DNA of 64,000 bases from a virus. The translations under genes were made by a program, and so were the position numbers. The stretch covers positions 1 to 64,000 of IMG/VR virus record IMGVR_UViG_3300021197_000868; one strand, written 5' to 3'. The notes below the pieces were generated by a model, which searched no databases, was not told the origin of the DNA, and saw only the letters and a program-made list of their open reading frames with translations. Shown one piece after another: positions 14,498 to 28,167 of the stretch (positions are counted from its first letter, which is position 1; every line of letters begins with the position of its first letter).

Positions 14498-15678
14498 AGT
14501 CGCCTACTAGATTTCAAGATATACAAACCACCCTTCCTGAAATGGATGAACTAGGTTACGGTGCTACAAGAACTGTACACACTCATCCTTCATTACCGGG
14601 TAAAGTCATTAAATTACCTAAACACTCAGCATTTTTTAATAGACAAGCCCACGATTTAGAAACAAATGCAGCGATGAACGCTTTAGCGCAAATGGGTCAC
14701 CCTGTAATTCCCGAAAAACCAGTAATAGTACCAGCACGTATGGAATCAGGAAATGATTACCCTAACCAAGTTATTAGAAAATTACCTGAGTTAGGAATGA
14801 TACAAGATTTCGCCGGGGAGACTGTAAAAGATAGAACAGAAGATAAGCATATTCCGAGAGTGCAAGTCAGACCATCATTATTAAACACCGCTGGGCGTGA
14901 ACTTATGAATAATGATTCACCCTCAGAAATGTCACTAGATGAAGTGAGAGCATTACGAAATAGGAAAAGAACATTTAACAACTCAACGGGGAAAAGGGAC
15001 TTACCTAATTTCTTAGAGTTAGGTGACCTACACAGTGGGAATGTAGTTGGTAGTGGTACTGATGAAGACCCCTTCCAAATCATTGACGGTTATGCCGCTA
15101 TACCTAAAATCAATATGGGGCTTCAAAATTATGCTAGACAATGGAGGAGAATGGACCCAGTGGCAAGAGCCACCTTTAAGAATCTCTTTAGTGATAAATC
15201 ACAATTCGCTGATATAGCGAATTATCACAATAATCCTCATCCAACTGAACCTGAACGTATGCCTAATTTAACTGCGGATGAGTTTGGTACTGATAAGATG
15301 TATGAGGCTGAGCATGAAGGTCGCTCGTTCATGGACGGTGGAGAAGGAAGGCATAAAACACCTATGGATAGAGCCCATGATGAGTATTCTAAGTATCTAG
15401 CAGCAAGAAAGCGTTTAGAATTAATTGATAGTCTTGTAGCAGACCCTCATCAAACAAGAGTAGAAGAATGGCATAACCCATATAATGACATGTCTATTTC
15501 TGATTTAGAGCGTGAGGGCTTTTATGGACCTGATGCAGGTTCTTTATCGAATACAGAAATGGGCTATGGAAGCAGTATGAGTATGGCTCGTGATAGTTTA
15601 CTCCCACCTGATACTTTCACAGGTACTAATCTACGTTTTAAAGACCCTGATTATTGGAAAACCGATGATTCTATATGA
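14461..15678 (+). CDS. Tagged protein-kinase-like protein (atypical Ser/Thr or APH-like fold)
   Basis: LGYGATRTV Gly-loop, KVIK, GDLHSGNV catalytic loop, IIDG; N-terminal MGEAFEICWQVLK tag. Confidence 0.75.
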   Translation: MGEAFEICWQVLKSPTRFQDIQTTLPEMDELGYGATRTVHTHPSLPGKVIKLPKHSAFFNRQAHDLETNAAMNALAQMGHPVIPEKPVIVPARMESGNDYPNQVIRKLPELGMIQDFAGETVKDRTEDKHIPRVQVRPSLLNTAGRELMNNDSPSEMSLDEVRALRNRKRTFNNSTGKRDLPNFLELGDLHSGNVVGSGTDEDPFQIIDGYAAIPKINMGLQNYARQWRRMDPVARATFKNLFSDKSQFADIANYHNNPHPTEPERMPNLTADEFGTDKMYEAEHEGRSFMDGGEGRHKTPMDRAHDEYSKYLAARKRLELIDSLVADPHQTRVEEWHNPYNDMSISDLEREGFYGPDAGSLSNTEMGYGSSMSMARDSLLPPDTFTGTNLRFKDPDYWKTDDSI

Positions 15679-15689
15679 AGCGGCATCAT
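15674..15689 (+). promoter_or_regulatory. Promoter-like box TATGAAGCRRCATCAT, copy 3
   Basis: Starts 25 nt before ATG 15699. Confidence 0.75.
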
Positions 15690-15698
15690 CCGACATCT

Positions 15699-16682
15699 AT
15701 GAGCCGTGCTATTAACGCAGCATTTGACCTTCTTAAAATGCAACATTTTGAACAACAGTACGGATATGAGTTCGTACTAGATGTTATTTCAAAAGCAGTA
15801 CAGGACCCACGTGTAGAGAAAATGCGTATGTTCGTTTTGCAGAATATGGATAGCCCTGACCCTCAAATGAGGAGACAGGCTGAAGAAATGTATCAGCAAT
15901 TAACTGAAGTCATGAGTGGTGCTGGTGGTAAAATATCAGCGGCTACTCCATTAGGTGTTGACCCTTCAGCGCCTCCAGCACCTGAAGGTTTAATGAGTAC
16001 AGGTAATCCTAAAGGTGAAGCCCGACCTATTATGGCTAAAGCATTCAGTGCTTTTCTTGATGCTGAGTTCATCAGGAAGAATGTAGTTGGAACACAGGCA
16101 ACAGGTCGAGGAGGTACACCTGTTCAATACAATATGCCTCCATCAGTAGCATCAATGGCTCAACGCCCTCAAATTGCTGAAATGCAACCTCAGACCACAC
16201 AAGTTCCTCAGCAAGCACCGGGTATGTTTGGTAGATTTAAGCAACCAGTAATGACTGACCAAACTAATTTAGCACCTACTGGTGATAATGTAACAGGTGG
16301 CCCAGCAACAATGAATGTTCAACAAAACGCTGAAAATCCTATGGAGGGATTAGGGGGTATGGGTCAAATGATGGCGGCTCCGGGTGCTCAAGTAACTCGT
16401 ATGCCTCGTCCACAACCATTTGGTTCAGGCATGGGTACGGACGTATATTTTAATGGCGGTAAAGTCCCAGCACCTACACAAAGTTTGGCTGGAGAAGGTT
16501 ACACTGTAGATGACGCTGGGGATTGGGTAAAACCTCCAAATCCTTACGAGAGCAGTGCTAATCGTCAGCGATGGGCAAGAGACTCCAAGTTACCTGTAGG
16601 TAACTACAATTCAGAAGGCGACTATAGGATTAACACAAGAACTGCACAAATGGGTGCGGCTGACCAATTTACTGGCGTTTGA
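15699..16682 (+). CDS. Tagged low-complexity (Q/P/G/M) protein (MSRAINAAFDLLK...)
   Basis: Start re-assigned to 15699; second internal tag-like segment AKAFSAFLDAEFIRK. Confidence 0.75.
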   Translation: MSRAINAAFDLLKMQHFEQQYGYEFVLDVISKAVQDPRVEKMRMFVLQNMDSPDPQMRRQAEEMYQQLTEVMSGAGGKISAATPLGVDPSAPPAPEGLMSTGNPKGEARPIMAKAFSAFLDAEFIRKNVVGTQATGRGGTPVQYNMPPSVASMAQRPQIAEMQPQTTQVPQQAPGMFGRFKQPVMTDQTNLAPTGDNVTGGPATMNVQQNAENPMEGLGGMGQMMAAPGAQVTRMPRPQPFGSGMGTDVYFNGGKVPAPTQSLAGEGYTVDDAGDWVKPPNPYESSANRQRWARDSKLPVGNYNSEGDYRINTRTAQMGAADQFTGV

Positions 16683-16694
16683 TAGGTGATGTAA

Positions 16695-18179
16695 TTGCCT
16701 AAAGACCCTGAGACGGTTGAGAAGTTTTGGAACGTCCTTGCTGGCGCTGGATTAAGAGCACTCGCTGGTAAGAAAGCAACACAAGTTGCTGGGGGAGCGG
16801 CTCTTGGTGGTTTAGCATCTACTGCTGGAAGCGCCGCTACTTCCGCTGGGGCCGCTGCTGGTAAAAAGGGACTGAAGGCTAAGATTGCTGATAAGGTAGA
16901 AGAAGTTAAAGAAAATCCTAAGATGCAAATGCTAGGCGCTGCTCAACAAAGTCTTGACCAAAATCGCATGGCTGCTGAGCAGCAGAAAAGGGACCAACAG
17001 CAACGTGCATCTGAAATGGCACGTTCTAAAGCAGACACGAGTACAGGCGGTGCATTCTCTAAGGCTTGGATGACAATGAAAGGGCAGACGTTTCATCCTA
17101 GTATTGTAGAACATCTCAAAGAGAGAACACCTAGGAGAGGTGAAGTTGAAGTTGCCCCAAGACCTTCTCCTTTTCCAAATCAACCTGATGAGCCTGTAGA
17201 TGTAGAGACTCAACGTGGTACACCCGCTGTAGACGAGCAGGGATTTACAACTCTACCTCAGCAACAAAGTGATGCTATTCAACCCGGTGATATGCCAAGA
17301 GGTAGTGCTAAAAAGATAGCAGTGGGTGGTACACAACCCATAGGTAATTTAAACCATACAATGTTTTTCAATAGAGGTCATCTCCGAGAGCGTGAAAATA
17401 GATTAGAAGGTGAAGGAGACGAAGTAAAAGAAATTATGTCACATTACGCTTCTAAACTAATAGGACCTGATGGTAGATATTTACCAAATGCTAATAAAAC
17501 GGTATCTGTTAAAACTCATCATTTAGATAAACCTAGAACAGCAGCGGATGGGAGTAGAGGTGATACGATAGTTGCTACTATAAGACCACATGATAATCAC
17601 CCTGATTATCCTCAATTACATACTGTGATGTATAGAGGTTCTAATCAACCATTTGACCTTGAATGGGCTAAGCGTTTCAATGTTGGAAAAATAATCAACC
17701 ATGTTAGGAAAGTTAGGCTTAAAAATAGGCTTAAAAAGTCTGAAAACTTGAATAGTATACTGGTTAAAGAAAGAAAAACCCCTGAAGCGATGAGACATAA
17801 GCGTGAATATGATGCTCAGTATAACAAACGCCCTACTCAAGTTAAGTATCGTGAGGACTTAAATCGTGAGCGCCGCCGCCGTGGAATCATGGGAAGTCAT
17901 GACCATATGGATGTTAGTCATACTCAAGGTGGAAAACTCACATTAGAGCCTGAACACTCCAATAGGGCTAGACATTGGAAGGATAAAGGTACACTGAGAG
18001 TAGTGAAGTCAATGAAAGATGATTTAGAATTACTTCGTAATCTACTTCAGGGACCAATGGATGAGCAAGACAAAAAAATCGCTGACGCTACTTTGACAAT
18101 GCTTGAAGAGCAAGACAATGACGAGGAAGAGGAAGAATTATCTCGACCACTTCACGGTGGCGGTCATCTATTTGTATAA
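16695..18179 (+). CDS. Modular protein with an internal tag (GAFSKAWMTMK) and a degenerate HNH-like module
   Basis: GGTGA RBS with TTG start; EYDAQY...R..LNRERR...MDVSH...SNRAR resembles small phage HNH-like domains. Confidence 0.7.
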   Translation: MPKDPETVEKFWNVLAGAGLRALAGKKATQVAGGAALGGLASTAGSAATSAGAAAGKKGLKAKIADKVEEVKENPKMQMLGAAQQSLDQNRMAAEQQKRDQQQRASEMARSKADTSTGGAFSKAWMTMKGQTFHPSIVEHLKERTPRRGEVEVAPRPSPFPNQPDEPVDVETQRGTPAVDEQGFTTLPQQQSDAIQPGDMPRGSAKKIAVGGTQPIGNLNHTMFFNRGHLRERENRLEGEGDEVKEIMSHYASKLIGPDGRYLPNANKTVSVKTHHLDKPRTAADGSRGDTIVATIRPHDNHPDYPQLHTVMYRGSNQPFDLEWAKRFNVGKIINHVRKVRLKNRLKKSENLNSILVKERKTPEAMRHKREYDAQYNKRPTQVKYREDLNRERRRRGIMGSHDHMDVSHTQGGKLTLEPEHSNRARHWKDKGTLRVVKSMKDDLELLRNLLQGPMDEQDKKIADATLTMLEEQDNDEEEEELSRPLHGGGHLFV

Positions 18180-18290
18180 TATACGTATATGCGAGATTAA
18201 GGTTGTATAGGTAATATAGTTATTATTATATTATACTGTTATTATTACAATATATAGTAAAGACAAATATCTTTACAACCTTTACAACTT
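18175..18290. repeat. AT-rich origin-like element, copy B (inverted relative to copy A)
   Basis: TATACGTATAT 18180-18190; 25/26 match to the block-2 reverse complement at 18202-18227; 17/17 match at 18274-18290. Confidence 0.8.
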
Positions 18291-18319
18291 AATCAGGAAT
18301 GTTTATCACTACCTAATCA

Positions 18320-18910
18320 ATGGCCTCACCAGTGACCCCTATGGATGATGATGTACAACACGAGGCTGAAATACGCCTTCTTGGACTAATACTTGCTCAA
18401 TCTGCTTTGGTCGGTGTGTCAATAGGTGTCTTCGATGCTGAAGTATGGCTTGAGAACACCACACCTGTGCTAAACGGACTTACATATGCTATGAGTGCAT
18501 TCTTTGTACAAGGTATAGCATATTACATGTTCAAGGTATTCTTTGAAAGGGGTATGAGAGAGCGTGCTCGTAGTGGTCAACTTGAGCGTGACCGTAATTA
18601 CAAGTACCGCTCAATGCAGCAAAACTTCGACTCACGAAGAAATGAAATGGAAATGCGAGTTCAAGAGGCTCAACTCGAAAGAGAGTTACGTTGGATGGAA
18701 GCAAACCCCGGTCAAATGCCACCATCTTGGGGAGTACCCGGAGGAGCACCTTCTATTGTTAGTAGTTATGACCAGCAGCAAATAGATGCTTCTCGTATTC
18801 CTCATCATTCTGCTAAAAACCCTACTCCGTTAACTTTAGGTATCTCTGATGAGGAGGTTCCCTTGAAGAAAGATGGTACTCCTGATAAAAGATATGAAAA
18901 GAAATCATGA
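18320..18910 (+). CDS. Two-TM membrane protein with a cytoplasmic coiled coil
   Basis: Two hydrophobic helices followed by an R/E/Q-rich coil. Confidence 0.8.
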   Translation: MASPVTPMDDDVQHEAEIRLLGLILAQSALVGVSIGVFDAEVWLENTTPVLNGLTYAMSAFFVQGIAYYMFKVFFERGMRERARSGQLERDRNYKYRSMQQNFDSRRNEMEMRVQEAQLERELRWMEANPGQMPPSWGVPGGAPSIVSSYDQQQIDASRIPHHSAKNPTPLTLGISDEEVPLKKDGTPDKRYEKKS

Positions 18911-18923
18911 GTGGGGAATATGA

Positions 18924-19178
18924 ATGGGTCGTATTTTCAAAACGCCTTCAGATAACGCTACTGAAGAAACTCTACGTGCTATCCATATCGCTAATACAGT
19001 AGATACTGCTTATGAGCGTACGTGGGGCTGGATTAAAACAATACTAGCATCACTTCTAACGGCGTTAGTTATTAGTGCTATTGAATTAAAAAACCCTGAT
19101 TATAGTCTGTGGGAATCTACAGTAGAATGGGCTGTCGATAAATTATATGATTTAGCCTCGTGGTTAAAGTGGTGGTAG
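18924..19178 (+). CDS. Small membrane protein
   Basis: WIKTILASLLTALVISAI helix; Trp-rich amphipathic C-terminus. Confidence 0.75.
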   Translation: MGRIFKTPSDNATEETLRAIHIANTVDTAYERTWGWIKTILASLLTALVISAIELKNPDYSLWESTVEWAVDKLYDLASWLKWW

Positions 19179-19179
19179 T

Positions 19180-19905
19180 ATGGTTGAGCCAGCAGGGACG
19201 GCATTGGTTGGCGCTGCCGTGTGGGGTCAAGCCCTATACCACTCGTGGCGACCAAGAAAGGTCGGAATCTACGGAGCACCCCAAGTTGGTAAAACAACCC
19301 TTGACCGATACATGACTACTCCGGGTGAAATGGAAGCCATACCGGATGAAGAGCGTACTGAGCATGGAAGAGTCTTTGGGTTAGTAGGTCCTTACAAAAT
19401 GCCAAAACCTACTCGTAAAAGAATAGGTTGGCATGGTGAGAAAAGAGTTGTATTTTCATCAGATATTGGCGGGCAAGAGCGTTTTTGGAACTTATGGATA
19501 GAAGATGCTGTCACACGTAAAGTAGAAGCGATAGTCTACATGTTTGATGATAGAGCATTCAAGGGTGGGGATGAAAGTCTACAGCAAATAGCAGGGTTTC
19601 GTTTTCTTGTAGACAGACTGATAAAACGAGATTATCGTTACCGCTCTTTACGTTCACGTCTTAGAGGAAGGCGTTATCATCCTAGGGTGGTTATGTTAGT
19701 CGCTAATAAGGCTGATAGATTCTTTGATGATACTGCTTCTAAATTATGGCATGATGGTAGAATAGGCGAGCATAAAGTGTTCGACCCCTTCCGTGATGAC
19801 TTGATTAGGTTACAAAAAGCAGGTATTCCTACTAAGCGTTCATTTATGGCTACACGTATAGGTTGGAACGTGGAAAAAACCATGTTAGACTTACTCACCT
19901 CATGA
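19180..19905 (+). CDS. Ras/Arf-superfamily small GTPase
   Basis: G1 GAPQVGKT, G3 DIGGQERF, G4 NKAD; hydrophobic/amphipathic N-terminal extension. Confidence 0.88.
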   Translation: MVEPAGTALVGAAVWGQALYHSWRPRKVGIYGAPQVGKTTLDRYMTTPGEMEAIPDEERTEHGRVFGLVGPYKMPKPTRKRIGWHGEKRVVFSSDIGGQERFWNLWIEDAVTRKVEAIVYMFDDRAFKGGDESLQQIAGFRFLVDRLIKRDYRYRSLRSRLRGRRYHPRVVMLVANKADRFFDDTASKLWHDGRIGEHKVFDPFRDDLIRLQKAGIPTKRSFMATRIGWNVEKTMLDLLTS

Positions 19906-19952
19906 TAGACCTTTCAGGAAGCCTTTTAATTGAATTACTTATGGTGAATGTT

Positions 19953-20135
19953 ATGGGAAGGAATGTCGTCACCACTACTTTGCACGCTGCATCTTCTAAA
20001 ACTAGCAGTTTACGCACTACTGTACCTATGTGGATAATAAACCAATTCGGTCTTAAAGCAGGTGACGATGTTAACTGGAAACTTCATGTTAAAGATGGAG
20101 AAATGATTGTAATTATGGCTCCTGTGGAAGAGTGA
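19953..20135 (+). CDS. AbrB/MazE/SpoVT-type DNA-binding protein
   Basis: SLRTTVPMWIINQFGLKAGDDVNW matches the swapped-hairpin pattern; start moved to 19953 (GGTGA RBS). Confidence 0.75.
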   Translation: MGRNVVTTTLHAASSKTSSLRTTVPMWIINQFGLKAGDDVNWKLHVKDGEMIVIMAPVEE

Positions 20136-20139
20136 TAGA

Positions 20140-21069
20140 ATGTTCACTAGACAACCTCAACAACAAATGACTGAAGCGCAGATAAGTACACTGGCTATGC
20201 AGGGTAACGAGCAACTCACTCAGGCTGCTTTAAGCGAAATGATGAGTGCTCAACAGGCCATGCAGCAAGTTGCTAGTCATCAAAACATTGAAGTTCCTAA
20301 AGTTAACTTCTTCCCTAGTAGACACCCTGACCCTAGAAAAGCAAGAAGGCAAGATATTAAGCAAGCGTATAAGTTACTACGTCCTGCACAACGTGGTAAG
20401 TTAAGCCCTCTAAGGTGGTTTGGTAACAGGTATCGTTACAATAAAGACACCGCTGTCTGTGTTGTTGATGGTTGTAACGTAGCAGAACTGATTAAACATG
20501 ATAATCTATACATGCGAATCTGTGATGAAGATACAGGTCGTAGTTTGTGGGAAATGTATTGGCAGAATCCAGTAACTGGTGAGCCTGAGGCCTTCATCGC
20601 TCGTGACAAAGTAACAGGGGGTAAGAAAATGCGTGGAACTTATTGTCCTGAACATTTACATCTCTATCACTTACTAACCAAGTGGGAAGCAGAAGAGGAT
20701 AAGCAAAATGAAATGAACCCTAATCGCTTACGTGATAAAGTTAAGCGTGGAGTTTCTATAGTCACTGTACCTATTTCTGCTGTTAAGCAGAAAGACCCTC
20801 AACCTGCTATGTTACAGAAGTACGAGCCATTCTTTGCTGAATTGGAAAGAGATGCTGGTAAAACTAAGGGGATTAGTATTCTTAATTATAAGAATCCAGC
20901 CACTGGTATAAATGATGTTACAATGGTAGTATTTGATTTACGCATCTTCCAAAATGAAATGGAGCAAATGAATATGCCTACTGCTGAGTTTCAAGCCCTC
21001 TTAACACAGCAACAAAATCTAATCCAACAGCCAAACCTTGATGTTGAAGGACTTAGTGGACAGGTGTGA
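20140..21069 (+). CDS. Hypothetical protein (Q-rich ends, Cys/His Zn-like core)
   Basis: CVVDGC...YCPEH. Confidence 0.75.
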   Translation: MFTRQPQQQMTEAQISTLAMQGNEQLTQAALSEMMSAQQAMQQVASHQNIEVPKVNFFPSRHPDPRKARRQDIKQAYKLLRPAQRGKLSPLRWFGNRYRYNKDTAVCVVDGCNVAELIKHDNLYMRICDEDTGRSLWEMYWQNPVTGEPEAFIARDKVTGGKKMRGTYCPEHLHLYHLLTKWEAEEDKQNEMNPNRLRDKVKRGVSIVTVPISAVKQKDPQPAMLQKYEPFFAELERDAGKTKGISILNYKNPATGINDVTMVVFDLRIFQNEMEQMNMPTAEFQALLTQQQNLIQQPNLDVEGLSGQV

Positions 21070-21746
21070 GCCGGATGTATAATTTCAGTCAAAACTCGCA
21101 ACAAAACGTTGGATTGAACTTGTCAGCAACAGGTGCTCCTACTGTTGGTCATCAACAACAGCAATACTCAGGATTAGGTATTAATCAACCACAACAACCT
21201 GTTGGGCTAATGGCAGGAATCCTTCAGGGTAGTGGTACTCAGCAGCATTTTAATCAAGCACAGCAGCAGTATAATCAAATACAGCAGCAACAGCAAATGG
21301 CTCCTCCGAGTGAAATGGAAATACTAAACGCCTTACTTCAATCTCAAAACCCCCTACATCGTTTTATTGCTACAGGTGGACTTGGCGCTGTGATTGAATT
21401 AATAGCAACAGCAACCTCTCTTTCTTTGATAACTATCCTAAAAGATGCCTCGTTTGTGATAGATGAAGATGAAGGAGTCGGTAAAATGGATATGACTTCT
21501 TTACCTGATAATCTAAAAACACTCAGTTCTGAAAATGTATCAATGTTGCTTAATAACCTTGTAAATAATAGCACTCAAACTATCCAACAGGCTGAAATGC
21601 AGCGTCAGCAAATCTTGGCTCTTAGTCAGCAGTCGGCTATGGGTGGTGCTCTTCAAGCAGCATTAGCAGATGAAGGCACGATGACTAAAATTGGCGGTGG
21701 TATTGGTAGTGTCGCTCGCTCTTTCATGGGACTACCAAAACAATAA
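21066..21746 (+). CDS. Q-rich protein with a hydrophobic segment
   Basis: ORF track; GLGAVIELIATATSLSLITIL. Confidence 0.75.
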   Translation: MSRMYNFSQNSQQNVGLNLSATGAPTVGHQQQQYSGLGINQPQQPVGLMAGILQGSGTQQHFNQAQQQYNQIQQQQQMAPPSEMEILNALLQSQNPLHRFIATGGLGAVIELIATATSLSLITILKDASFVIDEDEGVGKMDMTSLPDNLKTLSSENVSMLLNNLVNNSTQTIQQAEMQRQQILALSQQSAMGGALQAALADEGTMTKIGGGIGSVARSFMGLPKQ

Positions 21747-21755
21747 GGTGATTAT

Positions 21756-22007
21756 ATGGGACTAAAAGAAAATACAGATGAAATGTTTAGAGGGATTACT
21801 TATGCTAGTGCCCAAGTATTGTCACCAAGACGCTCGGTGATTACTGATATGATAATGGTACAATTCATCAGCATGATAATCACCTTTACATTGATTCTCT
21901 TTCTCAAAGGAGGCGACTTACCGACTAGTTCAGTTTCAGTCTTCCTTGTCGGAATCATGATTGCTTTCTTGGGACTCGGGAACGTCTACGGGCGCATCAC
22001 CAAGTGA
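21756..22007 (+). CDS. Small two-TM membrane protein (holin-like topology)
   Basis: Two TM helices; GGTGA RBS. Confidence 0.7.
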   Translation: MGLKENTDEMFRGITYASAQVLSPRRSVITDMIMVQFISMIITFTLILFLKGGDLPTSSVSVFLVGIMIAFLGLGNVYGRITK

Positions 22008-22235
22008 CCATTTACCTAAAGGACACTCCATTGATGGAGATAAGGCTTTTATCTTTACAAAGCAGCCACATTTTCGGCATATATCTAATGCTTTTAGAGA
22101 GTAAATACACTTGCTACATTCATTTAATCTCTGCATGTAAATCGCTTTACTGACCCTATTTTTTTGCTTTAGGTCTTTGGCTGTTGTGACTATATCAGAG
22201 ACTTGCCGAGGGACTCGCTTAAAACGTCTGAACAT
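21936..22235 (-). CDS. Cys-rich protein, DUF6171-like
   Basis: RLNECSKC...CRKCGCFVKIK......CPLGKW pattern; GGAGG RBS; the only minus-strand gene in the late arm. Confidence 0.65.
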   Translation of the reverse strand: MFRRFKRVPRQVSDIVTTAKDLKQKNRVSKAIYMQRLNECSKCIYSLKALDICRKCGCFVKIKALSPSMECPLGKWSLGDAPVDVPESQESNHDSDKED

Positions 22236-22296: not shown

Positions 22297-22983
22297 ATGG
22301 GACCAGCGGAGCGTGTAACTAAACGCTCTTGTGCGTTCTGTCAACACCCTAGTCGTGATGAGTTGGAGAAGGGTCTTACACTCGGTGAAATCTCATCTAA
22401 GCAACTTGACCAAGACATGGGTTGGAGGCATAACACAAGTGACCGACATTATCGAAATCATATGGGTCAATTTCATATGGCTGCTAATCCTCAATGTAAG
22501 ATTTGTGCTGACCCTCGACGTGCTGAGTTTGAGCAAAGATATTTTGCAGATGGCTCAGAATCTGAAGTGATTGCTGTTGAGTTAGGAGTACGTGAAGAAA
22601 CCGTATATCATCACATGAAGCACCATTTCCAACCGCTAGTTCAAAGAGCAGCAGTCTCTGAGGTCACAATGGTAGTAGGGGAGGAAATGAATGCACTCAG
22701 GTCAAATGTCGAATTACTCAACCATAAATTGTCTGAATTGCTCGATGAGGGAAGTGTCCATGAAGATGGGTTTGTTAGAGATGCGGTGTCTCTGCACAAA
22801 GAAGTCAGAGAGTCGATAAAGGACTTAATGAAAATGCAAGAGAGTTGGGGCCCTACTACTGAGAATGGAGAAGTGCATAATACCATCAACATTCTCAAAG
22901 TTGAACTTGGTAAAGAAAGCCCTGAATCTTGGGCTAGGATTAGAAAGAAATTAATAGACCATGTAGAGGAGGGAGCATTGTGA
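22297..22983 (+). CDS. Putative terminase small subunit (tandem Zn-finger/HTH plus coiled coil)
   Basis: Two CxxC...H..H repeats with HTH-like spacing, oligomerisation helices, position upstream of TerL. Confidence 0.55.
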   Translation: MGPAERVTKRSCAFCQHPSRDELEKGLTLGEISSKQLDQDMGWRHNTSDRHYRNHMGQFHMAANPQCKICADPRRAEFEQRYFADGSESEVIAVELGVREETVYHHMKHHFQPLVQRAAVSEVTMVVGEEMNALRSNVELLNHKLSELLDEGSVHEDGFVRDAVSLHKEVRESIKDLMKMQESWGPTTENGEVHNTINILKVELGKESPESWARIRKKLIDHVEEGAL

Positions 22984-23378
22984 TGGAAGTACCAGTTCCT
23001 GACCTTTTACAGGTTACTCATCCGGGTTACAGTATAGTGATGGGTCGCCCTAATTTAAGTGATAGTAACATTCTAATTCTTGTTGACTTCGCTAAATGCC
23101 TAACTGAAAGGTTTGAACATTATGGTAAGGTCGATGTATCTTCACCTGACATATTTGAACTACTTCAACAATCATTTAACCTGTTATTGAATAATGATGA
23201 CCCTCAGCAAGTTATACCTGTTAGATTTTTCACTGCTCGTCTTCTTGAAGAGTTTGAGAGTATGGTATCTAATATGTGTCAAGCGTTCCCTATCAATCCC
23301 ATAATAAAAACTGTCTACAATGACCTTAGTGAATTACTCTTTGAATCTCTTACTGAATTATCAGGAGGTGAACTTTGA
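22980..23378 (+). CDS. Hypothetical protein
   Basis: ORF track; coupled. Confidence 0.7.
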   Translation: MMEVPVPDLLQVTHPGYSIVMGRPNLSDSNILILVDFAKCLTERFEHYGKVDVSSPDIFELLQQSFNLLLNNDDPQQVIPVRFFTARLLEEFESMVSNMCQAFPINPIIKTVYNDLSELLFESLTELSGGEL

Positions 23379-24574
23379 TGACTGGAGGAATGATGGGGCG
23401 AACCTCTGATACTCGAATGTATGCTCCTCGCTCAGAATCATCACACATGTTCCGTGCTAACCACGAAGATGAGCGTACACCTACTGGTAATGAAGACCCT
23501 CGTGATAAGGAAGCCAAAATGGACAAGCGTCAGAAAAAGAAGGAGATGGAGGAGGAAGAAGATAAGAAAATCCGTCACATCAAAGTACGCCGTCATCACA
23601 TAGGTGTTGGTAAACCTAACGACATCGGAGAGGAAGGAGAAGAAGAGTCTGAGTTCAAACCTCGTGAAAGCCCATCTGAACCTACTCAACCGGCTGGTGC
23701 TGGTGGATTCCTAACCAGTCTTGCTATGGGCGCTAAAGGTCCCGGTGCTGCTGGCGGTCAATCTATTCAGATGAGTGAACCGATGGAGCACGCTTGGTCT
23801 GAGATTCTAAAGTCAAAGCGTAAGAAGGAGAAGAAAAAGAAGACCGAGGAGCGTGCAAAGTGGCGACCTTCTACTGGTAAGTTTAAGCGACCTCGTGGTG
23901 GTTACACTGGTCGCTCAGGTACATCTGCTCGTGCTAAACTATTATCTCGTAATCTCCCTATGGGTCGTAAAACCGGCTTAATGCGAGCACACCCTTCAGT
24001 TGAGTTTTCACATCGTGGTATCGCTAGTAAGCAACCAATGTCGAAAGACCCTCAAGCATATGGTCAATGGAAAGGTTACCAAGAGCAACAAAATATAATG
24101 GGTCAAGTTAGACCAATATCAGGTGCTAGATTACCGATGGGTCAAGTAAACATGCCTCGTGCTCCACGTCCAAGATTGCATCCAGTTCGTGCTCCTCCTA
24201 TTCAACCACCTAGACTTCGTGCGCCTAGTTTGAACAGACCTAAAATGCCGGGTATGGTTACAATGAGTGAAGACCCTGTACCTGAAGGCGGTCTTCTAAA
24301 AGGTAGAGGTCAAAATCCTTACCTTCTCGCTGAGGCTCGACAGGCTATCATAGCATTGAAGAAACTCATGAGAGAGGTAAAAGACAAAGACAGTAAGAAA
24401 AAAGGTAAAGGTACTCCTGACACAAGTGGGGCTTCTTCTAATTTACCTAACCATCCAGCAAATAATCCAAAACAAACTACCAACCCTGAAGGCCCTACTG
24501 AAAGCGATACAGATGCTCGTCAATTTGGACTTGACCCTAGAGGAGTAGCAGGACGTGGGAGCGGGAGAGTATGA
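23375..24574 (+). CDS. Basic low-complexity protein with an internal tag (MSEPMEHAWSEILK at 23771)
   Basis: GGAGGTGA RBS; K/R/P-rich segments after the tag. Confidence 0.75.
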   Translation: MMTGGMMGRTSDTRMYAPRSESSHMFRANHEDERTPTGNEDPRDKEAKMDKRQKKKEMEEEEDKKIRHIKVRRHHIGVGKPNDIGEEGEEESEFKPRESPSEPTQPAGAGGFLTSLAMGAKGPGAAGGQSIQMSEPMEHAWSEILKSKRKKEKKKKTEERAKWRPSTGKFKRPRGGYTGRSGTSARAKLLSRNLPMGRKTGLMRAHPSVEFSHRGIASKQPMSKDPQAYGQWKGYQEQQNIMGQVRPISGARLPMGQVNMPRAPRPRLHPVRAPPIQPPRLRAPSLNRPKMPGMVTMSEDPVPEGGLLKGRGQNPYLLAEARQAIIALKKLMREVKDKDSKKKGKGTPDTSGASSNLPNHPANNPKQTTNPEGPTESDTDARQFGLDPRGVAGRGSGRV

Positions 24575-26868: not shown

Positions 26869-28167
26869 ATGGGTGGAGTCCTTGTAAGAAAAAACATTCA
26901 ACCTCAATATAACTTTGGTACTGGTGAAATATCAAATGTAGTAAATGTAGGAGGGCGTAGGTCTAAAGGCCCTGTTTTACCTAACATGAGTGGTACAGAT
27001 AGAAGTCCTGCTCAAATGGCGAGCATTCAAGCCTTTGGTGCTCAGGCTGGACAAGAGTTAGCAAACTTACCTTCACCCGGCTCTATTGCAGATTATACTA
27101 AACGTCAAGAAGTTGGTGTTCAAAGAGCATCGGCTAAGGATGCGATGTCAAGAGGAGCGCCTACAAGTCATTATGAAAGATACGGGGCTGATAGATTTCA
27201 AAGAGAGATGGATAAAGGTGCAGATATTGATACTGCTAATAGAGCAGGTATAGCAGCCGCTAAAGTTGGAGTAAAAGGGAGAAGATTTGGTGGTAAATTA
27301 GGAGGTGCTCTTGCTGGCGGTTTGGGTATCTTATCAGCGGCTACTGCTTTAGATGAAGCGGGTGCTTCCGGTCAAGGTTTTGACCGTGCTATCACTAATG
27401 CTGGATTAACAGGAGTTACTACTTATGGACAAATAGATAATTCGGTAACACCTTTCTTACAAGATAAAGGTGGTGCTATAGGCTCTAAGTTTGCTAGTCC
27501 TAAATACGTAAGACCACCAGTGGCTGTCAATCCTCCGACTACCACTCCTCCAGTAGCGGTTACTCCGTCTGTTATTCCGGGTACGGGTACAGATTCTCAA
27601 GGTAGGTCTTTTAGCCCACTCCGCTCTACTGTGCGTGGTGAAGGTGAAACCTTTAGTCAGGCATACGATGCTCCGTTAACAAGCGCTCAAAACAAAGAAA
27701 GATTGACTGCTATTAATGCTCAAGCACAAAATAGCAACATGGGTATGACCCCTCAAATGACTGCTGAAAAAGTTGGTATTCAAAGGCGTGAGAATCCAAC
27801 TAATGTTGCTCAACCATTCAATCCTCAAGTGCAAGAGGGTGCTATGGATATGTTCAACGCTCCTCAACAGGTAGGTGTTGTACCCGGTAGTAGTCGTGTA
27901 GAACCATCAGGGAGTACAACTGTTCAACAAGGGTTACCCGGTATGGCGACTCCAAAAGCAGAACCTACCAATCCAGTAAAGGTTCAACAACAACTACCAT
28001 TGGGTCCGGATGAGGCTTCTGCTGCGTTTGCACCCCCTAAAGGTGGAGTAACGGGGATGCCGGATGCTAATGCTGCTGCTGCTCAATTCACTGGACAACA
28101 AAAAATGACTCAGGAAGAGATACCAGTGGTTGACCCCAATAAGAATCAGGAGGTGCAGGGAGCATGA
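26869..28167 (+). CDS. Gly/Ala/Pro-rich probable virion (ejection/pilot-like) protein
   Basis: GGKLGGALAGGLGILSAA hydrophobic Gly-zipper; N-terminal VLVRK-N. Confidence 0.7.
   Translation: MGGVLVRKNIQPQYNFGTGEISNVVNVGGRRSKGPVLPNMSGTDRSPAQMASIQAFGAQAGQELANLPSPGSIADYTKRQEVGVQRASAKDAMSRGAPTSHYERYGADRFQREMDKGADIDTANRAGIAAAKVGVKGRRFGGKLGGALAGGLGILSAATALDEAGASGQGFDRAITNAGLTGVTTYGQIDNSVTPFLQDKGGAIGSKFASPKYVRPPVAVNPPTTTPPVAVTPSVIPGTGTDSQGRSFSPLRSTVRGEGETFSQAYDAPLTSAQNKERLTAINAQAQNSNMGMTPQMTAEKVGIQRRENPTNVAQPFNPQVQEGAMDMFNAPQQVGVVPGSSRVEPSGSTTVQQGLPGMATPKAEPTNPVKVQQQLPLGPDEASAAFAPPKGGVTGMPDANAAAAQFTGQQKMTQEEIPVVDPNKNQEVQGA

Follow-up and report, generated by a model that had tools for sequence, protein, structure and literature searches.

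A virus-only Arf/Sar-like small GTPase within a conserved membrane-protein cassette of a group-A magrovirus

Introduction

What is a small GTPase doing in the middle of a block of membrane-protein genes in a tailed virus of archaea, and could such a block serve the virus to leave its host? This question is raised by the genes located between positions 18320 and 22007 (hereafter the cassette) of the first 64 kb of the 104,930-base IMG/VR record IMGVR_UViG_3300021197_000868, the completeness of which is estimated at 97%; these 64,000 nucleotides, the whole stretch of DNA that was analysed, are referred to below as the window. A first interpretation made from the letters of this stretch (the sequence-only reading) had proposed a GTPase-timed system for lysis, membrane remodelling or superinfection exclusion. 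We report here that the gene encodes a true small GTPase, Arf/Sar-like by motif, profile and fold, and that the core of the gene order around it recurs in distant viral lineages. In the magrovirus papers that were searched, we found no mention of a GTPase and no description of this Arf/Sar-like viral family or of the cassette. As to its role, the reading that we tentatively place ahead of the others is that the cassette, built around a virus-specific GTPase switch, controls a late membrane event, most likely release.

The window codes for an SNF2 helicase, a T4-type large terminase, a portal and an HK97/SU10-type capsid protein, and the same genome encodes, outside the window, a thermosome-type chaperonin and a family-B DNA polymerase (PolB). 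The combination of thermosome and SNF2 is the marker of magrovirus group A (Philosof et al. 2017, PMC5434244), which corresponds to the Apasviridae of today (PMC12999244). Magroviruses are tailed, are assigned to Marine Group II archaea (Poseidoniales) and rank with the most abundant viruses in surface ocean waters (PMC5434244). With its thermosome, SNF2, PolB and HK97-type head module, the present genome is a group-A magrovirus (Apasviridae-like). The cassette and the structural gene block share the same strand, and the large terminase, which begins at 28164, is found downstream of the cassette; the sequence-only reading had placed the cassette just before the packaging genes, a loose wording given that four further genes intervene.

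An Arf/Sar-Like Small GTPase

The 241-amino-acid (aa) product of the open reading frame (ORF) at 19180-19905 (plus strand) presents, in order, the motifs G1 (GAPQVGKT), G3 (DIGGQ), G4 (NKAD) and G5 (MAT). Among 22 close homologues, G1, G4 and G5 are invariant and G3 keeps D95, G97 and G98 in all. The switch II string DIGGQERFWNLW aligns with DIGGQPRFRSMW of Arl8, DxGGQ being followed by R and W as in the GGQxRFxxxW of that protein, and the intact G1, G3 and G4 motifs and the Arf/Rab-like switch II noticed in the sequence-only reading are thus borne out. The residue that precedes DxGGQ is Ser or Ala in the viral family, whereas Arfs have a Trp (WDxGGQ). The hydrophobic N-terminal extension, also noticed earlier, corresponds to a predicted helix at residues 4-23 that is rich in Ala, Gly and Val and is followed by a basic RPRK cluster; since its Eisenberg hydrophobic moment is 0.13-0.2 at a mean hydrophobicity of 0.47, this helix is uniformly hydrophobic rather than amphipathic.

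The structure was modelled with AlphaFold2 from a 40-sequence alignment (A4) reaching 22% identity, which gave a predicted local distance difference test (pLDDT) of 89.6 and a predicted template modelling score of 0.85; 22 near-identical sequences had given a pLDDT of 61. In this model the N-terminal helix precedes a Ras-like core with three predicted inserts, namely one of about 30 residues that separates helix 1 from strand 2 (residues 47-77), a basic stretch forming a loop and a helix (approximately residues 150-168, YRYR...RGRRY) and a helical insert between G4 and G5 (residues 180-215). Foldseek returned at least 500 matches to the model, and all those among the matches listed are GTPases. 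When structures were ranked by exhaustive VIA-align comparison, Arf6 came first (Z 17.2, two entries), followed by Sar1 (Z 16.5), SRbeta (Z 16.2; root-mean-square deviation of 2.8 A over 166 residues), an Asgard RagA-like protein (Z 15.7), Arl2 (Z 15.3), G-alpha and Arl13B (Z 15.0 each) and Rab proteins (Z of at most 14.6). The A4 profile was also compared with the sequences of solved structures, where it matched GerdArfR1 (8OUN; E 2e-6), Arl8 (E 3.7e-6 to 8e-6), Rab33B (E 4e-6) and K-Ras (E about 5e-3), 8OUN being a bona fide Arf-family GTPase from Asgard archaea (bioRxiv 10.1101/2024.02.28.582541).

The single-sequence Pfam matches of the protein all fall under threshold, with Roc at E 0.026 and Arf (PF00025) at E 0.3 and 11.0 bits against a cut-off of 22.3, and the GTPase is not a member of the Arf family under the threshold of Pfam itself. 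Its identity as a small GTPase is nevertheless far above chance, because of the profile E of 2e-6 to a solved Arf, the Z of 17.2 and a ratio of non-synonymous to synonymous substitution rates (dN/dS) of about 0.07. An MglA-like identity was considered and dropped: G3 is TxxGQ in MglA and DxxGQ in the viral GTPase, and no MglA structure is found among the top matches listed.

A Virus-Only Family in a Fixed Gene Order

In a set of 5.8 billion proteins, 467 homologues of the GTPase were identified. The homologues seen lie on marine viral-type contigs, and the best 120 of the 467 are all at least 71% identical to it, many of them being encoded on contigs roughly 100 kb long. When 1.84 billion cluster representatives were searched with a profile, only 83 proteins were retrieved at E <= 0.001, many of which are fragments, and no cellular small-GTPase family was found among these 83 matches. 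Similarly, in a look-up of a language-model protein atlas the clusters of the family itself are 100% viral, and the nearest named clusters contain bacterial Arf-like proteins. A targeted search revealed no fused, longer version of the GTPase, and the distant homologues P0163, P0158 and P0130 had no match in the viral contigs. Judged from these comparisons of sequences, the family is isolated, virus-only and very divergent.

Counted over every locus spanning the block in 80 viral contigs with close homologues, the group-A order is the same in 80/80: a 196-aa transmembrane (TM) protein, an 84-aa TM protein, the GTPase, an AbrB-type protein where present, a 309-aa Cys/His protein, a 226-aa Gln-rich protein and an 83-aa protein with two TM segments. 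Beyond the 83-aa gene the next conserved genes continue the shared group-A order, and the GTPase is present in every group-A record covering the region. The core of this order (2-TM protein, small TM protein, GTPase, Cys/His protein and Gln-rich protein) recurs in three distant lineages, the GTPases of which are 32-35% identical. The cassette follows the thermosome gene in lineage 2 (L085 and L088), glycosyltransferase-like genes in lineage 3 (L104, L109 and L113), where an extra gene of about 250 aa is present and the trailing 2-TM gene is kept, and a capsid-like gene, directly, in lineage 4 (140 viral contigs, e.g., L202, L260 and L273). An internal order that remains constant while the neighbours differ is good evidence for a functional module, and it rules out a recent capture from the host.

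Such a capture, in which a host GTPase would have been acquired recently with no real tie to its neighbours, was one of the two cases that the sequence-only reading had named as its own refutation. The generic label "GTPase SAR1 family protein", carried by some homologues in the source databases, could be taken in its favour. However, the 83 matches among 1.84 billion representatives include no cellular family, the clusters are entirely viral and the gene order is fixed across four lineages, so that this explanation is refuted unless a close cellular homologue exists in Poseidoniales, and we regard it as exceedingly unlikely.

Selection on the cassette was estimated from pairwise dN/dS against the genes of the window, and these values are rough because synonymous sites are saturated. 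The GTPase is the best conserved gene of the cassette (about 0.07), followed by the Cys/His protein (about 0.11), the 196-aa (about 0.20) and 84-aa (about 0.23) TM proteins, the Gln-rich protein (about 0.26), the 83-aa 2-TM protein (about 0.34) and AbrB (about 0.43), all of them below 1, and the cassette is under strong purifying selection.

As a separate observation on lineage 3, the genes upstream of the cassette (L104:1813-5102, L113:1822-5117 and L109:939-4252) encode two proteins of about 810 and about 286 aa, the second of them GT2-like, that look glycosyltransferase-like by eye, and these contigs also have a serine-recombinase-like gene (MKAAIYVRVSTEEQ...).

Comparison with Cellular GTPase Systems

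The viral GTPase shares with the Arf family (Arf6/Arf1, Arl8, Arl2, Arl13B, Sar1 and Asgard ArfR) a Ras-like G domain, a GKTT(L) P-loop, a switch II of the form DxGGQxRFxxxW as in Arl8, NKxD and xAT motifs and a helix placed before strand 1. It differs by the hydrophobic nature of this helix, which is amphipathic in Arfs, by the lack of a Trp before DxGGQ, by its three inserts, its variable G3 Gln and its sub-threshold PF00025 score, and by its virus-only range. SRbeta also has an Arf-like G domain behind an N-terminal hydrophobic anchor, in line with the Z of 16.2, but the viral helix is too weakly hydrophobic to qualify as a TM anchor and no SRX-type partner is recognisable in the cassette; SRbeta is specific to eukaryotes, and its partner is the SRX domain of SRalpha. 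Arf-type GTPases were reported on mobile-element-like regions of Asgard genomes (Atabeyarchaeia; PMC11529989), which likewise represent Arf-type GTPases on mobile genetic elements of archaea. However, the latter group with genuine Asgard and eukaryotic Arfs and are integrated in a cellular genome (PMC11529989), whereas the viral family has diverged much further, belongs to the core genes of a tailed virus and comes with membrane partners that stay the same.

As the nearest cellular analogue we considered ArvA-ArvB-ArvC (OapABC), a vesiculating GTPase operon of archaea in which ArvA drives the formation of vesicles (Mills et al. 2024, PMC10927574). We compared the viral GTPase with 13 ArvA genes adjoining OapB (PF09846), taken from Altiarchaeota genomes only (set A5, loci L091-L103). 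The hhalign comparison gave a probability of 94.9% and an E of 4e-8 over only 74 N-terminal columns, which cover the helix, G1, a shared GE..IP.E.R insert after helix 1 and strands 2-3, and the alignment ends at G3. The hmmsearch scores of the ArvA comparison (18-26 bits) are not above those to Arf and Arl8. Searched with HMMER against solved structures, the ArvA profile matches TrmE, Der and Era first (about 30 bits), 8OUL being the only Arf listed (22.8 bits); the published account of ArvA stresses its similarity to Arf (PMC10927574). OapB (PF09846) had no match anywhere in the 104,930-base genome, whereas the Haloferax and Methanosarcina controls were positive. Both systems combine a small GTPase of the archaeal world that has an N-terminal membrane helix, a putative one in the virus, with an operon-like set of small partners including one zinc protein, for which the Cys/His protein is the viral candidate, and membrane deformation would be common to both. 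The ArvA helix is, on the contrary, basic and amphipathic (moment 0.56 versus 0.13 in the virus), and G3 reads DMPGI in ArvA versus DIGGQ in the virus. Judged against these Altiarchaeota sequences, an identity with ArvA was rejected, as the alignment stops at G3, OapB is missing and the ArvA profile favours TrmE/Der/Era; the aligned segment suggests that the two families may share ancestry or design in their N-terminal half.

This resemblance bears on a second explanation, according to which the cassette would not serve release and would instead take over the host (altered division, vesicle release or transport) or block superinfection. Small TM proteins such as those of the cassette are typical of exclusion systems, and the N-terminal half of the GTPase resembles ArvA as described. 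In the part of the published list of ArvA-bearing genomes that was available, no Poseidoniales genome appears (PMC10927574), and the virus might supply a function that is missing in its host. However, exclusion and accessory genes are usually variable, whereas the cassette is part of the core and among the most conserved genes; arvB, the partner gene of ArvA, is absent from the virus, and the best solved-structure matches of the ArvA profile are of the Era/Der/TrmE type, unlike those of the viral family. We consider a take-over or exclusion module unlikely.

Genes of the Cassette

All ORFs described in the sequence-only reading were recovered at the same positions, and the membrane-protein-rich, operon-like block that it had seen around the GTPase is confirmed, with three proteins having clear TM segments and a fourth a weaker hydrophobic segment. 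All genes are on the plus strand and successive intergenic distances are 13, 1, -4, 4, -4 and 9 bases. The sole gap above 13 bases ahead of the last cassette gene is the AT-rich, repeat-containing intergenic region of 140 bases (18180-18319, with no strand assigned) between the stop of a 494-aa ORF and the first gene of the cassette. It represents a putative promoter region, and the cassette (18320-22007) is probably co-transcribed with the structural genes. Directly upstream of the cassette, positions 18180-18300 are very AT-rich and have TATACGTATA as well as repeated TTACAAC/GTTGTA words.

The first gene (18320-18910) encodes the 196-aa membrane protein, in which hydropathy indicates a strong TM segment at residues 20-38 (Kyte-Doolittle 2.14) and a weaker hydrophobic stretch at residues 51-75, followed by a charged helical region that forms a coiled-coil-like tail. 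It is found in 78 of the 80 close loci and is detectable in lineages 2 and 3 (E 1e-9 to 1e-7), and it had no Pfam and no PHROG match. Immediately upstream of the GTPase, the 84-aa protein (18924-19178) has by hydropathy a single TM segment at residues 37-55 and then a Trp-rich tail; its stop lies 1 base ahead of the GTPase ATG, it is present in all 80 close loci, and a small ORF with a hydrophobic tail (69-79 aa) takes its place in all three distant lineages.

The gene that follows the GTPase (19902-20135) encodes a small DNA-binding protein of AbrB/SpoVT type. Its start is at 19902 or 19941, the former being the likely one, with an ATG in ATGA overlap with the GTPase stop. The AbrB-type regulator of the sequence-only reading stands, if narrowly, since PF04014 matches at 25.0 bits against a cut-off of 24.7 (E 1.9e-5), barely above threshold. 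It was detected with phmmer in 79/80 close loci and is missing from the three distant versions of the cassette, and is thus restricted to group A.

The more constant downstream partner of the GTPase is the orphan 309-aa Cys/His protein with a Gln-rich N-terminus (20140-21069). It is present in 84/84 loci of lineages 1 and 2, and homologues stand directly downstream of the GTPase in lineage 3 (E 1e-32 to 1e-37) and lineage 4 (profile E about 1e-6). C107 and C169 are invariant, H172 and H177 are near-invariant and a GTYCPEH motif is conserved; this Cys ... GTYC-x-x-H pattern suggests metal binding. No match to this protein was found in Pfam (OapC included), in PHROG, in Protein Data Bank (PDB) profiles or in the protein atlas. 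When its residues 46-290 were predicted in complex with the GTPase, GTP and Mg, the score was 0.26 against a mark of 0.32.

The last two genes encode the 226-aa Gln-rich protein (21066-21746), which by hydropathy has a central hydrophobic segment at residues 101-119 and the gene of which overlaps the 309-aa gene by 4 bases, and the 83-aa protein (21756-22007), with TM segments at residues 32-50 and 59-77 (Kyte-Doolittle 2.45 and 2.12). Both are present in 80/80 close loci. A Gln/Asn/Gly-rich protein of 230-270 aa takes the place of the former in the distant lineages, and in lineage 3 that of the latter is occupied by a weakly similar (E 2e-4) protein of 103-107 aa with two TM segments. The 83-aa protein had been called holin-like, and it is indeed small with two TM segments, as phage holins are; the label nevertheless rests on size and topology only, as there is no holin family match, and, unlike in holins, no endolysin is adjacent and the tail is of 6 residues (ending in GRITK) instead of long and charged. 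Neither an endolysin nor a holin family was matched in the cassette neighbourhood with Pfam and PHROG, the whole window not having been scanned for endolysins. The archaeal host has no murein, so that no endolysin is expected or needed. In a Pfam scan, no neighbour of the GTPase matched the roadblock or longin families.

Proposed Role of the Cassette

The factors that mediate lytic egress in archaeal tailed viruses were described as "completely uncharacterized" (PMC10791045), and it is because of this gap and of the host envelope described above that a late membrane event, most likely release, is taken as the leading reading. The GTPase has guanine-specific motifs, and its gene is always accompanied by those of two to four small membrane proteins and of the Cys/His protein. 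It would be held at, or recruited to, the cytoplasmic membrane of the host by its N-terminal helix, by the TM proteins encoded next to it and by the basic loop at residues 150-168, and would there cycle between GTP and GDP as a switch. The Cys/His protein could be its effector or regulator, and the TM proteins could include its receptor or exchange factor as well as further effectors. The switch would govern a membrane event late in infection, most likely a local breach or remodelling through which virions are released and, less likely, the building of a membrane-bound assembly site. Sar1, together with Sec12 as the exchange factor in the membrane and Sec23 as the activating partner, and ArvA, with its zinc protein ArvC, are proposed as parallels by analogy and not by homology. 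What remains of the module suggested by the sequence-only reading is the Arf/Sar-like GTPase, the membrane-rich block and the fixed core order, whereas lysis timing, remodelling and exclusion have no direct support.

Several findings weigh against this reading. In 4 of the 22 close homologues (P0028, P0042, P0053 and P0120) the position of the "catalytic" G3 Gln, Q99 (codon 19474-19476), is taken by His, Glu or Asp, and more distant members of the family have His, Ala or Phe there, the other G motifs being intact in all of these; as this Gln is not invariant, GTP hydrolysis may need a partner or be slow, and the GTPase cycle may be unusual. The hydrophobic stretch of the N-terminal helix, of about 16 residues, is below the Kyte-Doolittle threshold of 1.4 for a TM segment and is not amphipathic either, and binding of this helix to the membrane is thus only presumed. 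No membrane-remodelling or lytic domain was recognisable in the cassette proteins with Pfam, PHROG, PDB profiles and the protein atlas. Finally, tblastn of the GTPase found no match in the deposited phage and archaeal-virus records (OR863078, magrovirus_A_01, not being among them), and the cassette cannot therefore be a general egress system of archaeal tailed viruses.

The position of the genes raises two further explanations. Within the structural and late block of group A the cassette is only a few genes ahead of the terminase, and in lineage 4 it directly follows a capsid-like gene, as would be expected if the GTPase and the TM proteins marked a membrane-anchored platform, i.e., a site for proheads, terminase or tails during virion assembly or genome packaging. 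However, in lineages 2 and 3 the cassette is located beside thermosome or glycosyltransferase-like genes and not beside head genes, and to our knowledge tailed viruses do not need a membrane site for head assembly, which makes such a platform quite unlikely. The same location among structural genes would also suit cassette products that are packaged in the virion and act at entry, for instance as a channel in the membrane of the next host, and the ejection proteins of tailed phages do include small TM and Gln/Gly-rich proteins. Nevertheless, a nucleotide-dependent switch requires cytosolic GTP, the cassette is not linked to tail genes in any lineage and we know of no virion-borne small GTPase of a tailed virus; we consider that the products are most improbably virion or ejected proteins.

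A bolder version of the release reading would see in the cassette a self-contained viral membrane machine of Arf/Sar type, made of the GTPase, a receptor or exchange factor, a zinc-protein regulator and membrane effectors, on which a major group of tailed viruses of archaea would rely for lytic egress. We doubt that the reading holds in this complete form, but if true it would provide a counterpart, in viruses of prokaryotes, of the GTPase-driven membrane remodelling of eukaryotes. The core cassette gives the question of how archaeal tailed viruses exit a concrete set of genes. In addition, a virus-only branch joins the Arf/Sar/ArvA world of archaeal small GTPases, which bears on the pre-eukaryotic origin of GTPase-driven membrane remodelling.

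Flanking Genes and a Related Contig

Past the cassette, a Cys-rich ORF of 99 aa on the minus strand (21936-22235; Pfam DUF6171 E 5.8e-9, PHROG 13558 E 1.2e-12) shares about 70 bases with the 3' end of the gene for the 83-aa TM protein; as it is detectable in only 43/80 related loci, it represents a variable insert at the end of the cassette. It is followed by a 228-aa protein (22297-22983) with two CxxC pairs and a weak GerE/helix-turn-helix match, which is present in 80/80 close loci with a dN/dS of about 0.09, a conservation like that of the GTPase, and for which a function as late regulator or small terminase can be envisaged. The proteins encoded on either side of the cassette (15675-16682, 16695-18179 and 23375-24574) harbor an amphipathic peptide of the "..AW..LLK" type, e.g., AINAAFDLLK and EHAWSEILK, of which none was seen by eye in the cassette proteins.

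When the viral thermosome was scanned against contigs of cellular genomes, it matched only a "Parvibaculum" contig and an Altiarchaeales genome. The former (L089, NZQM01000180.1), labelled as part of a metagenome-assembled genome of this alphaproteobacterial genus, is 9.6 kb long and encodes a thermosome 50% identical to the viral one, and it is probably a mis-binned archaeal or viral contig.

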